A DNA stretch of 45,509 nt from sequence record OZ035793.1; one strand, given 5' to 3'. The notes beneath the pieces were generated by a model. It ran no database searches. It saw only the letters and a list, made by a program, of their open reading frames with translations, and had not been told where the DNA came from. How positions within the stretch are numbered: position 1 is the first letter of the stretch; every line of letters starts with the position of its first letter. Source of the DNA: Veterinaerplatzvirus T145P1. A program made the position numbers and the translations under genes. This document shows positions 3,940 through 43,353 of this stretch, one piece after another.

Positions 3940-5028
3940 ATGTGTAAAATCCGCTATGACAGCGCAAAGTTTAAGGCAACAATCGACGAGAATGGATTCT
4001 TAGTCGACACGCCAGTGGTGGCGCGTCTAGGCGTGCAAGTCTACTACATGGAGGACGGTCGAACGGTTCGTGAGTTTCGCCCAGCGGAGGAGGTTTTCAA
4101 GGATGAATCTCTAGCCAGCTACCAGGGTAAGCCAATGACTCTTGACCATGTTTTCGTTAACTCAGAGAATGCTAAAGAGGTGGTGGTAGGATCAGTTGCT
4201 GGAAAGGCGGAGCCATTAGGCAGCTCTGTGGTTGCTCCAATTGTTATTTACGATAGTGCCGCCATCAAGGAAGCCATGGCGGGTAACGCAAAGGAGTTAT
4301 CCGTTGGATACTCATCGGTTATTGATTACACCCCCGGCTGGGGCGACCCTGTTACTGGCGAGTACTTCCTTAAGTCTGAAAGTGAGCTATTCGACGTACC
4401 AGAAGGATGGCAGGAGTTCGACGCAATTCAGCGTGACATTAAAGTGAACCATCTGGCAATGGTGTATCGCGGTCGCGCAGGTATTGCCAAATTGAATATG
4501 GACGGTGAGCAGGAAAACCCGTATACTACTGACGTTGATATCAATAAAGAGGATAAACAGGAAATGACAGTTAAAATTAAACTCGACGGCGCGCAGGAAT
4601 TTGAAGTTGCCCCGGAAATCGCTTCTCACATCGAAGCACTGAACGCAAAGGCTGACACTGCAATCGCAGAGCGCGATGCACTGAAAGCTAAAGTTGATGC
4701 AATGCCTGCTGAAATCGAGGCCGCAGTTGCTAAAGCGAAAGCTGATGCTGATGCCCTGGCTGCTCTGGTTGCTGTTGCTGCCGAGGCTGGTGTAAAGGCT
4801 GATGGACTGGATGCTAAAGGCATTAAAGTAGCTTACGTTAAGGAAGTCTCAGGCCTGGATGTTTCCGAGAAGTCCGACGCGTACATCGACGCAGCGTTCG
4901 ACATTGCCAAAGAATCTGATAAAATGGCTGAAGTACGTAAAGCGACTACCGCTTCCGACAAATCTGACAGCGCCGATGAGCCTAAGAAATTAGACCCGCG
5001 TGCTCGTTTAGCTAAAATTAAGAAATAA
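3940..5028 (+). CDS. head morphogenesis protein with scaffold-like coiled-coil (putative protease/scaffold)
   Basis: Start trimmed to ATG 3940 behind RBS gaggag; Ala/Lys/Glu-rich coiled-coil segment typical of scaffolds; position between portal and capsid. Confidence 0.45.
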   Translation: MCKIRYDSAKFKATIDENGFLVDTPVVARLGVQVYYMEDGRTVREFRPAEEVFKDESLASYQGKPMTLDHVFVNSENAKEVVVGSVAGKAEPLGSSVVAPIVIYDSAAIKEAMAGNAKELSVGYSSVIDYTPGWGDPVTGEYFLKSESELFDVPEGWQEFDAIQRDIKVNHLAMVYRGRAGIAKLNMDGEQENPYTTDVDINKEDKQEMTVKIKLDGAQEFEVAPEIASHIEALNAKADTAIAERDALKAKVDAMPAEIEAAVAKAKADADALAALVAVAAEAGVKADGLDAKGIKVAYVKEVSGLDVSEKSDAYIDAAFDIAKESDKMAEVRKATTASDKSDSADEPKKLDPRARLAKIKK

Positions 5029-9336: not shown

Positions 9337-9369
9337 TACCTCATCGAAACGAAATGAGAGATTAAAGAA

Positions 9370-20510: not shown

Positions 20511-20690
20511 TTTGTATTCCTTATTAAGTTGTTTCGTTTTGATGTAGTAATAATACAACCGTCAGTGCGGAATGTCTTTAGCTATTCGTGCTATTGCATA
20601 CACGTAACCGATGTAACTCGATGTATACAATCTCATCCGCGGAAAATGATATACGCACTGTTACGCAAATTTACGCATTGGTTACATTAA

Positions 20691-20750
20691 AATATCTATA
20701 TATATCAACCTTTTACTCTTATTATTATTATATATATATTACTGTGTATA
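20691..20750. repeat. AT-rich long direct repeat copy A with (TTA)4 tract
   Basis: AATATCTATATATATCAACCTTTTACTCTTATTATTATTA...ACTGTGTATA, near-identical to 39953-40021. Confidence 0.85.
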
Positions 20751-21055
20751 TCATGTAACTACTTCTATAGAGTGTTCCGGTTATAATTTTAATATCATGT
20801 GGATTTATACAGTATTGCGCTGCAGCTATACCAATGCACCCTCAGCAATGAATGATATACACGATATACACGATGGTTACATTGAGCTATAGCTGGGCCG
20901 AGATGCCAAAAAACGTAACTAGTGCCAATGCCTACACGGAATTACAAGGATTCACGTGTAAACTTAAATCAACGATTGGCAAAACCAATTGGACTGGTTA
21001 CGGTGCCGAATATATAGTTAACTCATCGAAAGCAAACAACCAGAGAGATACAGAA

Positions 21056-26705: not shown

Positions 26706-26725
26706 AATAGCACGAATTGCTAAAG
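26706..26725. promoter_or_regulatory. palindrome copy AATAGCACGAATTGCTAAAG without + strand -10
   Basis: Lies between the primase terminator and the tailspike start on the - strand; - strand TACAAT at 26729-26734. Confidence 0.4.
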
Positions 26726-26749
26726 TGGATTGTAGCATCTTTGAGTCAT

Positions 26750-26770
26750 AAAAAAACCTCCCGAAGGAGG
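26750..26770 (-). terminator. intrinsic terminator after primase gene
   Basis: - strand CCTCC-ttcg-GGAGG plus T7. Confidence 0.7.
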
Positions 26771-27697
26771 TTAGTCTAGTAATTCGCTCGCCTTGTATAT
26801 TCGCTTTCTTATTCCTGATTTGAAGTGGTTATCATTATTTGGCATTACAACATCAAGATTGCGATCGTCAGCAACGGCGAGTAAATCAAAATCGCTGCGA
26901 GTACAAGCGATGCGTAACTTGTAGTTTCTAAGCGCGTAAGCAACCATTTCCATGTTGTAACTGGAGTGGCAAACAAGCACACAGCGGTTCCCAGTAGCAA
27001 TGTGAACGCGATAGCCATCAATGAAATTATCGACCAGATAAGCGTACTCATCATCCTTAAAGGAACCAATAACAGAAACAGACTGGCGAGAATAATCTTT
27101 TGCAGCATAACTAACATCTCCCTCCTCATTGATAAACATTACATTGCACATCTCTTCTGATATGCCGTCACTATAAGCCATAAAGCACGGAACTGCGTGG
27201 ATTAATTCACCTGATTTCGTCCTGCCAACATCAAAACCGAACTCGCTATAGATACCCTCGTATGTACTGAGAGGAGTTGATTCTACTCTTTCCGTCCTTT
27301 CCATTATCTCTAAGCATCTTTCGTGATCAATCTGAGCGCCCATTTTGTATGGTGATGTTCTTGAAGCTCTTTTGTTTGCTTTTGATATAACCTCTACTGG
27401 AACGAGATTCAGCCAATCACCAAGCGTATCTATTGTTTCACTATAACTCATTCCAGAACACTTCATTACCCAACCAACACCAGAATCATTTCCACACTGG
27501 TTGCATATTGCTGCGCCATTTCCCTTTTCTTGACCTAACTCATCAGTGAAGCGAAACCTATCCTTGCCAAAGCAGTAAGGGCACGGACCATGTTTCTTGC
27601 TGAGATTCTCCTTTGTCCATCCAAGATGCGATGAGTAGAACTCACTCCACATCCCTTTCATCTTGGCTATCACTTCGTTCTTATCATGGTGACTCAT
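26771..27697 (-). CDS. DNA primase (zinc-binding, putative)
   Basis: Start trimmed to ATG 27697 (RBS ggagg); CPYC...CNQC zinc-ribbon near N-terminus; followed by intrinsic terminator. Confidence 0.6.
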   Translation of the reverse strand: MSHHDKNEVIAKMKGMWSEFYSSHLGWTKENLSKKHGPCPYCFGKDRFRFTDELGQEKGNGAAICNQCGNDSGVGWVMKCSGMSYSETIDTLGDWLNLVPVEVISKANKRASRTSPYKMGAQIDHERCLEIMERTERVESTPLSTYEGIYSEFGFDVGRTKSGELIHAVPCFMAYSDGISEEMCNVMFINEEGDVSYAAKDYSRQSVSVIGSFKDDEYAYLVDNFIDGYRVHIATGNRCVLVCHSSYNMEMVAYALRNYKLRIACTRSDFDLLAVADDRNLDVVMPNNDNHFKSGIRKRIYKASELLD

Positions 27698-27752
27698 AAT
27701 TACCTCCATAAACAATAAAGGCACTATACATAATGCAAAGTGCCATTGTTTA

Positions 27753-28232
27753 TCAAATCGTGCTGTTTTGCTCTTTCTTCTTTTGGTTCTCTAATTTTAT
27801 CTTGCGCCATGAACGACACTCTGGCTTAGTGGCTAATTCAGCCTCAGTGACGACTCGCAGCATATGGCGCTTTTTGCACCGAAGTGTCAGCGGTTTCCCG
27901 TTGCCGTCGAATTGCAGGTCTGGTCGGCAGAATGTAGCGCGAAAACCTTCTCCATTTCGCTTATAGTAGTTGTGAGAAAGTTGAGCCCCACGCGCAGAAA
28001 TCATACCGCGCTTAAACCATTCTTCTACAGCCTGTGGTGTTACCTTTAACTGCTTTGCGATATTCGCCTTTGTGCCGAAGAAATCAAGAACTATCTCTAG
28101 CCGCGCGCGTAGCCCGGCTCTTACTTCATCTTTTAAAACATAGTAGCCTGAAGGTCGTTTACGTTGCTTTTTGTCTTCGGTGCGGATGGTTCCGTTATTG
28201 CCGTTAATTGTTCGCTTGTCGACTGTATTCAT
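27753..28232 (-). CDS. helix-turn-helix DNA-binding protein (candidate transcription regulator)
   Basis: Basic 159 aa protein with HTH-like segment KANIAKQLKVTPQAVEEWFKRG; first gene of the - strand operon, next to divergent promoters. Confidence 0.5.
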   Translation of the reverse strand: MNTVDKRTINGNNGTIRTEDKKQRKRPSGYYVLKDEVRAGLRARLEIVLDFFGTKANIAKQLKVTPQAVEEWFKRGMISARGAQLSHNYYKRNGEGFRATFCRPDLQFDGNGKPLTLRCKKRHMLRVVTEAELATKPECRSWRKIKLENQKKKEQNSTI

Positions 28233-28243
28233 TTCATTACCTC

Positions 28244-28288
28244 AATAGCATTTTTTGTTAAAAGTCATCCTGATTTGATGGTATCATT
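28244..28288 (+). promoter_or_regulatory. composite promoter element (helicase operon)
   Basis: AATAGCATTTTTTGTTAAAA then about 22 bp to ATCATT. Confidence 0.45.
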
Positions 28289-28314
28289 GTACTCAATTAA
28301 ACGCTACAAGACAA
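28286..28314 (-). promoter_or_regulatory. sigma70-like promoter for the HTH-primase-tailspike operon
   Basis: - strand TTGTCT-17-TACAAT, overlapping face-to-face with the + strand helicase promoter. Confidence 0.45.
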
Positions 28315-28333
28315 TTTTTATAGGAATTTAGAT

Positions 28334-30328
28334 ATGTTGCCTATCGAGAAGCTGGTTGCAAATTTCGATAAAGAAAGAATCAAACAGATTCAGAAAGACT
28401 ATCAGTTTGGAGAGATAACCCCTTACGAATTCCAGTGCGTGACATTTGATGCAATCGGAAAGGCTATTGGCAAGTACGAGGCACCATTTATCGCAGACCT
28501 TTCAGTATCTGCGGGTAAGACAATCATTCTTGCCATGATTGGTAAGCGCATGGAGCAGCTTGGGCTTCCCTATATGGTTCTCTCTCGCCAGTCAGAGATT
28601 ATCAGCCAGAACTCAGAAGAGCTTCGTAATTTCGGCATACGTAATAGCGTCTATTGCGCTGGCCTTAACGTCAAATCAGTTTACTACCCAACTATAGTGG
28701 CCAGTGAGGGTACGGCAGCCAACGGCTTGTTTAAGGGGCTTGGTGACTATGTTCCGGCAGTTATCGCTATAGATGAGTGTCACATGGTCGATCACATGGA
28801 TATCGTGGAGGCTGAAGAGAATGAAGAAACATTTGAGCAAATGAGCACAAAGAAAGGCGATATGGTTTTTAAGGATGGCGTAAACACAGGATTGCTTGGT
28901 ACTGGTCGTGCGCAGTACACGCTAATTATCACCGAGATGAAACGTCGTTGTCGTGAGAAGTACGGGCGTGAGCTTCGTATATTCGGTCTTACTGGCAGCC
29001 CGTATCGTAACAACGATCATATCGTCGTTAGCAACCCAAACATCCGTGGATTCTGGCGCAAAACAGTGATTCAGGTGCCAACAAATTATCTGGTTGATTT
29101 GGGCTTCGTTGTTCCTACTGTTTATGGTGAAGTTGGTGACCTGGGTTATGACCTTAGTGAGTTTGCGCCAGACGGAAGCGATGGCGTTAAAGACTTCAGC
29201 AAGAAAGAAATGGATGCAATGGCTGCAAAGATTCACGACAACCAATCAATGACCCAAAAGATAATGGGTTTTGTTGTGAAAATACTCGAGACTCGTAACG
29301 CTGCATTGGTAACATGCGCTGGCAAACTCCATTGTGATGAGGCTGCTGCGGCACTACCAGATGGATACCCTTACGCCATCATCACAGACTCTACGGGAGA
29401 GAGGAAGCGCAGGGAGATTCTGGCTGATTGCCAGACAGGTAAGTACAAAATAATATTCCAGATTGGTTGTCTTACTACGGGCGTAAACCAGCCGCTGTGG
29501 GATACTAGCGTCATACTACGCAAGATTGGCAGCCTAACGCTTATGATTCAGCTTCTTGGTAGGGGGATGCGCAAACTTAAGAGATCTCATATTGATGCTG
29601 GTTTTCATAAAGAAGATCACCTTGTGCTGGATTTTGCTGGCGCACTTGATGATATGGCTGAGCTTTACTTTGACCCAATTATTGAAGAGATTCAGGCTGA
29701 GAAGTTTAAATCCTCAAGAAAAGGTGGCGATGAGGTTCGTCAGTGTCCGCAATGTGGATATGAAAATTCCCCATTCGCTCGTCGCTGTAGCAATAAGATT
29801 GATGGCGTTAGATGCGATCACTTCTTTCAGTTCACAATTTGCGAAGACATTACCGACGCGCAAACTAAATCGGTAATTAAAAAGGGTTGTGGCGCTCGCA
29901 ATGACATAGCAGCAAAGGTTTGCAGGGAATGCGGCGAGATGCTTAAAGACCCAAATGCTAACCTGACTGGCAAAATGTATCGTCGTGGTGATTACCTTCG
30001 TGTTTATGATTTTCAAGTTGGGTTAAGTAAGAATCAGACAGGCATTGTAGTTAAGTACAATATAATGGCTCATAACGGAGAGAGATTTAACGCTTGGGAG
30101 TTCTTTAATCCAGAATCAGACCATCGAGTTTGCAGTGTGCTCTGGAAGAACTTTTGCTTAGCTCATATTGAGAATCGCACGGAAGCGGCACGAATTGGCA
30201 GGCTTAAAAATGCCAGAATGATTATGACTAACGTAGATAAGTTCCGTGCGCCAGTTCAGGTTACGCATCGCCGGAATGCAAAAGGAAAGGACGTGATAGC
30301 GTTTAAGAATTTTGGAGAATTATTATGA
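28334..30328 (+). CDS. SF2 DNA helicase with C-terminal zinc ribbons
   Basis: Walker A SAGKT, DExH-like DECH motif, C-terminal CxxC pairs. Confidence 0.8.
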   Translation: MLPIEKLVANFDKERIKQIQKDYQFGEITPYEFQCVTFDAIGKAIGKYEAPFIADLSVSAGKTIILAMIGKRMEQLGLPYMVLSRQSEIISQNSEELRNFGIRNSVYCAGLNVKSVYYPTIVASEGTAANGLFKGLGDYVPAVIAIDECHMVDHMDIVEAEENEETFEQMSTKKGDMVFKDGVNTGLLGTGRAQYTLIITEMKRRCREKYGRELRIFGLTGSPYRNNDHIVVSNPNIRGFWRKTVIQVPTNYLVDLGFVVPTVYGEVGDLGYDLSEFAPDGSDGVKDFSKKEMDAMAAKIHDNQSMTQKIMGFVVKILETRNAALVTCAGKLHCDEAAAALPDGYPYAIITDSTGERKRREILADCQTGKYKIIFQIGCLTTGVNQPLWDTSVILRKIGSLTLMIQLLGRGMRKLKRSHIDAGFHKEDHLVLDFAGALDDMAELYFDPIIEEIQAEKFKSSRKGGDEVRQCPQCGYENSPFARRCSNKIDGVRCDHFFQFTICEDITDAQTKSVIKKGCGARNDIAAKVCRECGEMLKDPNANLTGKMYRRGDYLRVYDFQVGLSKNQTGIVVKYNIMAHNGERFNAWEFFNPESDHRVCSVLWKNFCLAHIENRTEAARIGRLKNARMIMTNVDKFRAPVQVTHRRNAKGKDVIAFKNFGELL

Positions 30329-30744
30329 AGATTACAGATAAAGAAGATTACATTGAGTTTTACCAGGGTCCGGTTAAGTCATGCCCTAAAGAGGATGACG
30401 AACAAATCTTTTGCTCTGATTGGGTTAAGTATAACTACCCAGATATGGTATTTTTCCATTGCGTGAATGAGGGAAAGAAAACCATTGGTCAAGCAAGAAA
30501 AGACCAGGCTAAGGGGCTTCTAAAAGGCGTATCAGACTGTATGTTTCTTATTCCTGAATCACTTCGAGGTAAGTATCCTTTCGGAGCTATAGAGCTAAAG
30601 AGGGCTGGCAAAACTCAAGCAAGTCCAGTCAGCGAAGAACAGAAAGCATTCCTGAAAAGTGTAATGGAATCAGGCGGTTTCTCGGCAGTCGCCTACGGAC
30701 GTGAGGGTTTTCTTGCAGCATTCAAAGAAATGATTTCAAAATAG
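30325..30744 (+). CDS. VRR-NUC domain nuclease (putative)
   Basis: Small basic protein with D...E.K-like segment (DCMFLIP ... IELKR); start overlaps helicase stop. Confidence 0.5.
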   Translation: MKITDKEDYIEFYQGPVKSCPKEDDEQIFCSDWVKYNYPDMVFFHCVNEGKKTIGQARKDQAKGLLKGVSDCMFLIPESLRGKYPFGAIELKRAGKTQASPVSEEQKAFLKSVMESGGFSAVAYGREGFLAAFKEMISK

Positions 30745-30784: not shown

Positions 30785-30820
30785 TACTCCATCGAAACGA
30801 AACACAAAGAGAGTAATAAA

Positions 30821-33934: not shown

Positions 33935-33975
33935 TACCACATCGAAACGAGATGAACTAAACGAGGAAACACAAA

Positions 33976-38152: not shown

Positions 38153-38186
38153 TTTGTTTTCCTTTGTGTCTTTCGTTTCGATGGGA

Positions 38187-39777: not shown

Positions 39778-39952
39778 ATTAAGTGGTGAGTGAGTGAATG
39801 AAAGATGGATGGACTACCATACAAGTTGATTTTTACCAATCTATGGGAGCCTCACGGATATACGCGTATCCTCCGTATACTCAGTGTCGTCACAAAAGTT
39901 AGTGACCACTAACCTACGTTTTTACGCGATATATACACACGATATACAATAT

Positions 39953-40021
39953 AATATCTATATATATCAACCTTTTACTTTATTATTATTATTATTATTA
40001 TATATATGTATACTGTGTATA
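39953..40021. repeat. AT-rich long direct repeat copy B with (TTA)7 tract
   Basis: Same sequence as 20691-20750 except the microsatellite length and 3 substitutions. Confidence 0.85.
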
Positions 40022-40979: not shown

Positions 40980-41017
40980 AGCCTCATCGAAACGAGATAC
41001 GTAAATGAGGATTTAAA

Positions 41018-41236: not shown

Positions 41237-41282
41237 CAATAATTGCTAAATCTTCCGCAAGGCCATTTGATATAGTGGCCTT
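41231..41282 (+). promoter_or_regulatory. composite promoter element with -10 inside hairpin
   Basis: AAATAGCAATAATTGCTAAA, 22 bp, TATAGT; inverted repeat AAGGCCA...TGGCCTT (41259-41282) encloses the -10. Confidence 0.5.
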
Positions 41283-41317
41283 GTTGAAGCAAAACAACCA
41301 ATCACGAGGTATAAATT

Positions 41318-42769: not shown

Positions 42770-42813
42770 ATAGCACGAATTGCTAAACCCGCTCCTGCGG
42801 GTTTTGTTATAGT
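42768..42813 (+). promoter_or_regulatory. composite promoter element with terminator-like hairpin in spacer
   Basis: AAATAGCACGAATTGCTAAA, spacer contains CCCGC-tcct-GCGGG-TTTT, then TATAGTTA. Confidence 0.55.
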
Positions 42814-42841
42814 TAGTTCACACCAATCGAGAGGTAAGAAA

Positions 42842-43283: not shown

Positions 43284-43329
43284 CACTAATTGCTAAAACA
43301 GTATTGGGGTAATTTGTTATAGTTACCCC
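43281..43329 (+). promoter_or_regulatory. composite promoter element
   Basis: TAGCACTAATTGCTAAAA, 22 bp, TATAGTTA; stem GGGGTAA...TTACCCC spans the -10; CATCGAAACGA leader. Confidence 0.55.
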
Positions 43330-43353
43330 ATCGAAACGAGAGAGGAATAAGAA

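Follow-up and report, generated by a model that had tools for sequence, protein, structure and literature searches.

A marbox-like repeat and overlapping divergent promoters between the regulator and helicase genes of a T1-like coliphage

We analyzed the 100-bp gap between two divergent genes in a 45,509-nucleotide stretch of DNA from Veterinaerplatzvirus T145P1 (sequence record OZ035793.1); this whole stretch is called the window below. The window belongs to an Rtp/T1-like coliphage (Drexlerviridae, Braunvirinae), and its positions 27700-30400 are 99.7% identical to the annotated Escherichia phage 2725-N35, also from Drexlerviridae, Braunvirinae. On the minus strand, the gap is bordered by a gene encoding a helix-turn-helix (HTH) protein, and on the plus strand, by the helicase gene, the first one in the rightward replication operon. 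The gene order, comprised of primase, HTH "transcriptional regulator," and divergent helicase, is kept in all Drexlerviridae genera examined. The two open reading frames and the elements between them are as follows; the Shine-Dalgarno sequences were assigned by reading the sequence.

27753-28232, minus strand: HTH gene, 159 amino acids, with the ATG at the complement of 28230-28232
28240-28243, minus strand (read 28243-28240): GAGG, Shine-Dalgarno sequence for the HTH gene; the left box edge is 1 nt away
28245-28264, plus strand: marbox-like 20-bp box ATAGCATTTTTTGTTAAAAG, in the forward orientation, towards the helicase
28265-28281, plus strand: 17-bp spacer between the box and the -10 element of the helicase promoter
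28279-28287, plus strand: extended -10 element TGG-TATCAT of the helicase promoter (hexamer 28282-28287), predicted start at ~28294
28286-28291, minus strand: -10 element TACAAT of the HTH promoter, predicted start at ~28279
28309-28314, minus strand: -35 element TTGTCT of the HTH promoter, separated from the -10 by 17 nt
28322-28325, plus strand: Shine-Dalgarno sequence AGGA of the helicase gene
28334-30328, plus strand: helicase gene, 664 amino acids, annotated as "DNA helicase" in MN840485

The initial annotation had described this gap as a face-to-face pair of promoters sharing a palindrome. The minus-strand promoter TTGTCT-17-TACAAT and a plus-strand composite element overlapping it were recovered by reading the sequence; a simple promoter scan also found the minus-strand promoter, with a score of 9/12, and in our reanalysis the composite element spans 28245-28287. 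The -10 hexamers of the two strands share 2 bp (28286-28287). The start sites were predicted by assuming a distance of 7 nt from the -10, and, as they fall at ~28294 on the plus strand and at ~28279 on the minus strand, the transcripts are expected to diverge without overlap, so that the pair is not face-to-face in the classical sense. The placement of the box within the early transcribed DNA of the HTH gene holds, at about +16 to +35 of the predicted transcript.

Taken alone, the minus-strand promoter is not above chance, with four promoter-like sites in the 1.5-kb region compared to 2.8 in shuffled sequences. It gains support from its conservation in relatives: a promoter is found at the same place in 12 of the 13 related intergenic regions, with scores from 9 to 11 of 12, for instance, TTGTCA-16-TATAAT in KP1801, TTGACT-17-TATCAT in phSE-2, and TTGAAT-17-TATAAT in T1, and the GenBank record of AHP24 independently annotates a promoter there. 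The overlap of the -10 hexamers is 2 nt in the window and in Rtp; in ten of the 13 relatives it is 5 nt (TATTATA or TATGATA), with the predicted starts 18 bp apart. With opposite-strand -10 hexamers that overlap and -35-type elements that flank them, the gap is a predicted bidirectional promoter, of an architecture known from bacteria (PMC12825309). As RNA polymerase cannot hold both orientations simultaneously, this geometry, that is, two overlapping opposed promoters with the box upstream of the helicase promoter and downstream of the HTH start, can act as a switch. Hence the geometric part of the autoregulated switch proposed initially is retained; the other part, the HTH protein as the factor binding the box, is not, for the reasons given below.

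A repeated box with the form of a marbox

The box is one member of a repeat family; the window has ∼19 copies, distributed over both strands and preceding genes, and six Drexlerviridae genomes contain from 8 to 17 copies each. Most copies start 74-89 nt upstream of a co-oriented start codon. We collected 70 sites from four genera, represented by the T145P1 window, T1, Klebsiella phage KP1801, and Salmonella phage phSE-2; the set was partly selected on the pattern GCA, and unselected repeat families give the same picture. The box is the 20-bp sequence ATAGCAC-nnn-TTGYTAAA, the full consensus being A1 T2 A3 G4 C5 A6 C7 K8 W9 W10 T11 T12 G13 Y14 T15 A16 A17 A18 a19 c20. The partner -10 hexamer, most often TATAGT, follows at 18 bp in 59 sites, at 17 bp in six, and at 19 bp in five, and all copies that have such a partner are oriented towards it. 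The box promoters are thereby predicted to be modular and devoid of a -35 element, each comprised of the box, 18 bp (±1), and a good -10. Two other assignments were considered and rejected. TTGCTA within the box could not serve as the -35 hexamer, as it is 22 bp away from the -10, too long for sigma-70, and a resemblance of CCCCATCGA in the start region to a sigma-32 -10 was set aside, as the matching -35 is absent.

The term palindrome does not describe this element. Only positions 2-6 and 12-16 are complementary, and even within these 5-bp arms the pair 4/14 is complementary in 43 of the 70 sites, position 14 being C or T. Outside the arms, the pairs 7/11 and 1/17 are complementary in one and two sites, respectively, and the flanking positions A1, C7, and A17-A18, which hardly vary, do not mirror one another. 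Since pairing is restricted to the arms and the conserved flanks are unlike, the box is asymmetric, with a short internal inverted repeat, and is not a two-fold symmetric operator of the Cro/CI type.

Canonical promoters are rarer than expected by chance: the window contains eight with a score of at least 10/12, while the mean in shuffled sequences is 14.3, which suggests that activator-independent promoters are avoided. Small genes that are presumably early form clusters, and these too are found behind box promoters. Given the scarcity of canonical promoters and the position of these clusters, box promoters are probably needed, and probably active, before any phage protein exists.

This repeat has been described in the T1 group. 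The genome of TLS carries 21 copies of a 21-nt direct repeat, aaATAGCACnnnTTGnTAAAA, which is also found in T1, Rtp, and Rogue1; it lies ∼76 nt upstream of genes in a genome with only three sigma-70-like promoters and was assigned no function (PMC11447400). According to the same paper (2024), similar repeats or possible "enhancers" had already been noted in T1. The box in the window is the same element, as it has the aaATAGCACnnnTTGnTAAAA consensus, is situated upstream of genes in the orientation of transcription, and shows the same division into three spacer classes (GAA, TTT, and AAA). The TLS paper connected the repeat neither with the marbox nor with a fixed -10 partner, nor did it relate the repeat to phages other than those of the T1 group (PMC11447400).

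To compare the box with known host sites, we used two published forms of the marbox, the motif GCAHWWWWTGYYAAA derived from chromatin immunoprecipitation (ChIP) (PMC6900184) and gcannwwntgnnaaa, that is, GCANNWWNTGNNAAA (PMC12052159). The 15-nt core of the gap box (28248-28262) matches both perfectly. Window-wide, GCAHWWWWTGYYAAA has 17 matches with at most one mismatch (1.57 expected), and GCANNWWNTGNNAAA has 16 perfect matches (1.19 expected). Marbox sites of class II are forward-oriented and centered between -36 and -55 (PMC12052159). The phage box core is centered at ∼-40 of the predicted starts, placed 7 nt past the -10. The box shares with class II sites the consensus, the asymmetric forward placement over the -35 position, and the spacing to the -10. 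In E. coli micF, 18 bp separate the box ACAGCACTGAATGTCAAAAC from the -10 TAGAAT. The cryo-electron microscopy paper on the Rob-micF complex describes an A site (GCAC) and a B site (CAAA) overlapping the -35, with contacts to -47G and -45A; with the -10 set at -12 to -7, these are positions 4 and 6 of the phage box. The mar marbox, read as ATGCCACGTTTTGCTAAATC, is identical to the T-class phage box at 16 of 20 positions. The GCA...TGC inverted repeat noted initially is therefore part of the marbox consensus itself. The match in sequence and placement suggests that the box is a class II marbox, the site of the monomeric AraC-family activators MarA, SoxS, and Rob.

Within this family, Rob is constitutive, MarA and SoxS are made under stress, and RamA is the member found in Klebsiella and Salmonella. 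No MarA-like gene was found in six-frame translations of the window or of Escherichia phage Skarpretter, introduced below (best phmmer E-value 2.1), and a Pfam scan of the 68 window proteins revealed no AraC-type family among the best 25 of 51 families. In the literature searched, we found neither a link of the marbox, Rob, MarA, or SoxS to T1-like phages nor transcript 5′-end, start-site, or transcriptome data for Drexlerviridae; one retrieved paper (PMC12557735) proved to be unrelated, "rtp" there denoting random-sequence genes.

The box and the HTH protein across phages

The HTH protein has a Cro/YdaS-like all-alpha HTH domain (residues ∼35-100) and a variable C-terminus. Its Pfam matches, P22_Cro (E-value 4e-6) and YdaS, are both below the gathering score, and it is assigned to PHROG 2856, "transcriptional regulator," with the E-value of 7e-83. 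The AlphaFold model has a pLDDT of 86.8; the best folds found in the PDB by Foldseek are Xfaso1, N15, and P22 Cro, with target TM-scores of 0.64-0.73 and weak E-values (0.05 or worse). Thus a protein with a Cro-like fold, albeit with weak E-values, is encoded beside the box. Homologues are found in 824 phage records, and the gene is a core gene of Drexlerviridae.

Among eight phages with identical boxes, only 2 of the 10 positions in the predicted recognition helix (residues 66-75) are invariant, and no part of the protein is less conserved; the basic N-terminal tail, DKRTxNGNNGxxRxxD..., has 12 invariant positions of 26. We considered covariation of the HTH protein and the box across genera, but, as the box is invariant, none is possible, and only the contrast between the variable helix and the invariant box could be used. 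Residues 5-44 of the tail (28101-28220, minus strand), DKRTINGNNGT.R..D...R, are the most conserved part of the protein across genera and have low model confidence; the tail is probably disordered. Its conservation suggests a partner, a host protein or a contact with the DNA backbone or groove, rather than a simple linker.

The protein and the boxes are found together in every Drexlerviridae genome examined. These include Vibrio phage Vc1 and Pseudomonas phage Motto, with the GC content of 45%, both of which have box promoters and the HTH gene; several boxes and -10 elements of Vc1 are degraded relative to those of Motto. The association breaks in Skarpretter (Skarprettervirus), a podovirus outside Drexlerviridae with P22-like structural genes and the GC content of 56%, isolated on E. 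coli K-12. Its genome has eight perfect marbox cores, seven of them with a -10 at 17-19 bp, such as AATAGCACGAATTGCTAAA-18-TATAGT. The box-18-TATAGT modules, at 3979, 24188, 26482, 35078, 35714, and 36887, precede genes for which the window has no homologues. With a profile built from eight HTH sequences, no homologue was found in Skarpretter (the best E-value is 0.38, compared to 1e-81 in the window), and the primase and helicase genes of this phage are directly divergent with no HTH gene between them. Only five of the 68 window proteins, a RecE-like exonuclease, Erf, primase, helicase, and VRR-NUC, have tblastn matches in Skarpretter; all five are enzymes of replication or recombination, and most of the Skarpretter boxes are outside the region shared with T145P1. 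What T145P1 and Skarpretter have in common is the host, not a regulator.

Hence two features expected of a Cro/CI-type regulator, co-occurrence of the protein with its sites and conservation of the recognition helix, are both lacking. The initial annotation had proposed the adjacent HTH protein as the candidate factor for all copies of the repeat. Evidence against this comes from the asymmetric match to the marbox, the variability of the helix in phages with identical boxes, the probable need for box promoters before phage proteins are made, and the boxes of Skarpretter, and the HTH protein is probably not the box reader.

Four further phages, Salmonella seszw, Vibrio pYD38-A, Klebsiella IME279, and Serratia ChibiTotoro, carry the helicase/primase module and have neither boxes nor the HTH gene; IME279 is a relative of Skarpretter without box modules. 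Therefore, the boxes are not a by-product of the replication module. As to which protein binds the box, these four phages are uninformative.

Possible control by a host activator

The explanation that we favor, with slightly better than even confidence, is a bidirectional promoter driven by a host activator. A MarA/SoxS/Rob-type protein would occupy the box at 28245-28264 and substitute for the missing -35 contact, recruiting sigma-70 RNA polymerase to TGG-TATCAT for transcription towards the helicase. The HTH promoter, which reads leftward, comes with a -35 of its own, located on the far side, and would need no activator. Since the two -10 hexamers overlap, polymerase is predicted to be bound in one orientation at a time, and, the orientations being exclusive, activation of the rightward promoter is expected to lower HTH transcription, as SoxS does on acrR: polymerase bound rightward would cover the HTH promoter, and stronger activation would mean less HTH transcript. 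The position of the box in the 5′ region of the HTH gene is unlikely to create a roadblock, by analogy with acrA/acrR, where DNA-bound SoxS spares elongation. A broader claim, to which we give about equal chances of being right or wrong, is that T1-like phages, and independently Skarpretter, run nearly their whole transcription program from class II marbox promoters via host MarA, SoxS, Rob, or RamA, and that the gap is a phage switch resembling acrA/acrR.

At acrA/acrR, SoxS activates acrA and silences acrR, a divergent gene for an HTH repressor, by polymerase competition, and DNA-bound SoxS does not block elongation (PMC12825309). The phage gap similarly has a shared or overlapping -10 region, divergent starts, a marbox activator acting one way, and an HTH regulator encoded the other way, the starts, the activator, and the reduction of HTH transcription being predicted for the phage. 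The differences are that AcrR is a TetR-family protein with a known operator in the region, while the phage protein is Cro-like with no identified operator, and that the acrAB marbox is generally described as class I, while the phage box is in the class II position.

The promoter itself resembles class II promoters of the micF type, which have a 20-bp asymmetric box with GCAC and YAAA elements, in the forward orientation over the -35 position, 18 bp from a good -10, and no usable -35. Unlike the E. coli sites, which are degenerate and situated at scattered stress genes, the phage boxes are ∼19 near-consensus copies in a lytic genome, serving nearly every transcription unit; they also conserve the additional positions A0, A3, T11, and T12 and the start-site region, and their binding is predicted from sequence. 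Compared to PR/PRM of lambdoid phages, the common feature is a gene for an HTH protein of the Cro fold read from one of two closely apposed divergent promoters; the phage site, however, is asymmetric, genome-wide, and present in a phage without the protein, and there is no symmetric operator set. Both the host promoter type and the bidirectional switch type are thus known; new, relative to the literature searched, is their proposed use by a lytic phage as a general promoter module.

Several observations weigh against the host-activator explanation. About one third of the boxes have G at position 8 (the GAA class), breaking the W of the ChIP motif. In cells that are not under stress, Rob is largely inactive, and MarA and SoxS are scarce. 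Moreover, Rob has been reported to require inducers such as dipyridyl (PMC12052159). It would be surprising for a strictly lytic phage to rely on stress activators, unless basal activity suffices; with good or extended -10 elements, it may be enough. A literature search of incomplete coverage yielded no report of rob, marA, or soxS mutants resisting T1-like phages, although the three factors are redundant. The dissociation of the boxes from the HTH gene comes from one lineage, and Skarpretter could encode an unrelated factor of the same specificity. If the host labels of Vc1 and Motto are right, they favor a phage-encoded factor over an enterobacterial one; these labels are doubtful because of the GC content of 45% and because the closest relatives infect Citrobacter and Salmonella. 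The HTH protein could also read DNA through its invariant N-terminal tail. Finally, every functional step has been derived from sequence.

Of the competing explanations, two seem to us improbable to the same degree. The first retains the host activator as the box reader and adds the HTH protein as a modulator, either a repressor of the core promoter or a late competitor for the box. The logic is that of acrA/acrR, where the marbox activator is combined with a divergently encoded HTH repressor of both directions, and the conservation of the HTH gene as a core gene in 824 records would fit such a role. In T1 and pSf-2, a 9-10-bp inverted repeat, AACGTTTAC...GTAAACGTT, flanks the shared -10 and could be an operator. 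However, a search of the T145P1 gap for a second inverted repeat, with perfect arms of at least 6 bp or arms of 8-10 bp with one mismatch, found none, and no candidate operator in the gap is conserved across genera. A second palindromic operator for the HTH protein was therefore dismissed, being absent in T145P1 and strong only in T1 and pSf-2, and nothing ties the protein to a specific DNA sequence. Candidate roles of the protein are repression of the core promoter that both directions share, action at a replication origin, in view of the location of its gene between those for primase and helicase, and binding of a host protein via the invariant tail.

The second is that the box is read without MarA, SoxS, or Rob, either by RNA polymerase directly, through a UP-element-like or otherwise unusual upstream contact, or by another host protein. 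The authors of the TLS study list a UP element, an enhancer-binding site, and a stoperator as possible roles (PMC11447400). Parts of the box are A/T-rich (TTTTT, TAAAA), it is situated between -50 and -31, and the Skarpretter result demands a reader on the host side but no particular one. Nevertheless, a UP element, as an A/T-rich site for the C-terminal domain of the RNA polymerase alpha subunit at -40 to -60, has no conserved G/C blocks; the invariant GCAC and TTG blocks of the box are foreign to it, with G4, C5, A6, and G13 invariant or nearly so in the 70 sites. In addition, the box fits all specified positions of two independent marbox definitions as well as the micF spacing. A stoperator role would leave unexplained the fixed 18-bp register to the -10 and the distance of ∼75 nt to start codons.

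Still less probable, in our estimate, is an autoregulated master switch, with the Cro-like HTH protein sitting on the box as a dimer. From about -41, it would turn on the helicase promoter together with every other box promoter, like lambda cI at PRM, while repressing its own promoter. The half-site centers of the 5-bp inverted repeat TAGCA-N5-TGCTA are 10 bp apart, a distance compatible with a dimeric HTH protein, and operators of this kind are bound by Cro proteins. No gene of the region other than the HTH gene has its own -35-containing promoter; the box, beside the GAGG, adjoins the HTH ribosome-binding site in all 12 relatives examined; and the protein accompanies the boxes throughout the Drexlerviridae genomes examined. 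Against this, besides the asymmetry, the variable helix, and the Skarpretter promoters, putative early genes have box promoters and the genome lacks strong canonical ones, so that infection would have to start from one weak 9/12 promoter, and the perfect match to the site and geometry of a host factor would be a coincidence.

The class II marbox explanation offers a concrete and cheaply testable mechanism for transcription in the T1 group, which proceeds without canonical promoters and without a phage polymerase or sigma factor. If it is true, a conserved bidirectional promoter controlled from the host side replaces, at this locus, the model of a phage repressor on a palindrome, and phage expression would be wired to the mar/sox/rob state of the host, affected by, e.g., bile salts, salicylate, oxidants, and antibiotics. 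Inducers or mutations that lead to more MarA, SoxS, Rob, or RamA might then increase phage expression, which might be weakened if all of these activators are lost. That would connect the mar/sox/rob/ram antibiotic-resistance regulon with how susceptible E. coli, Klebsiella, and Salmonella are to candidate therapeutic phages of a very common family, and would provide ∼20 natural, graded, near-consensus marbox promoters for studies of the activators.

Other copies of the box and neighboring repeats

A second composite element is found near the gap, within the 3′ end of the HTH gene.

27723-27766, minus strand: box ACAGCACGATTTGATAAACA (27766-27747), 18-bp spacer, and TATAGT (27728-27723), pointing at the primase gene

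Its equivalent is present in T1 and phSE-2. The -10 TATAGT of this primase promoter is inside a hairpin, GGCACT...AGTGCC, followed by a T-rich run (27719-27766, minus strand). The terminator of the HTH gene and the primase promoter seem to overlap, an arrangement also seen in T1 and phSE-2.

An orphan box, ATAGCACGAATTGCTAAAGT (26707-26726, plus strand), has no -10 partner and faces a bidirectional terminator at about 26750-26775. It adjoins a minus-strand TACAAT (the complement of 26729-26734) upstream of the tail-fiber gene. A marbox protein bound there would overlap the start of the leftward promoter, a predicted repressing rather than activating position.

The spacer between the box and the -10 often contains a G+C-rich hairpin (42790-42815, 43300-43325, and 41255-41285, as well as sites of KP1801 and phSE-2). 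Some spacers are full intrinsic terminators with the T-run merging into the -10, as in CCCGCTCCTGCGGGTTTTGTTATAGT, and in other copies an inverted repeat embraces the -10, as in GGGGTAA...TATAGTTACCCC. In such copies, the terminator and the next promoter are apparently fused into one compact module.

The predicted start-site region, with the 5′ leader, is conserved in many copies as CATCGAAACGA(A/G)A, at 9337-9354, 30785-30802, 33935-33952, 40980-40997, and 43324-43341, with a minus-strand copy near 38180. The helicase promoter lacks the conserved CATCGAAACGA leader. A second flavor of the leader, CACACCAAC, is found at 2165 and 42818 and also in Skarpretter.

Finally, an extremely A/T-rich 75-nt repeat with TATATATA and ATTATTATT runs is present in two copies, 72% identical (20683-20757 and 39945-40019). 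The copies lie in two large divergent intergenic regions with outward-facing box promoters on the flanks, and could be replication origins or early control regions.

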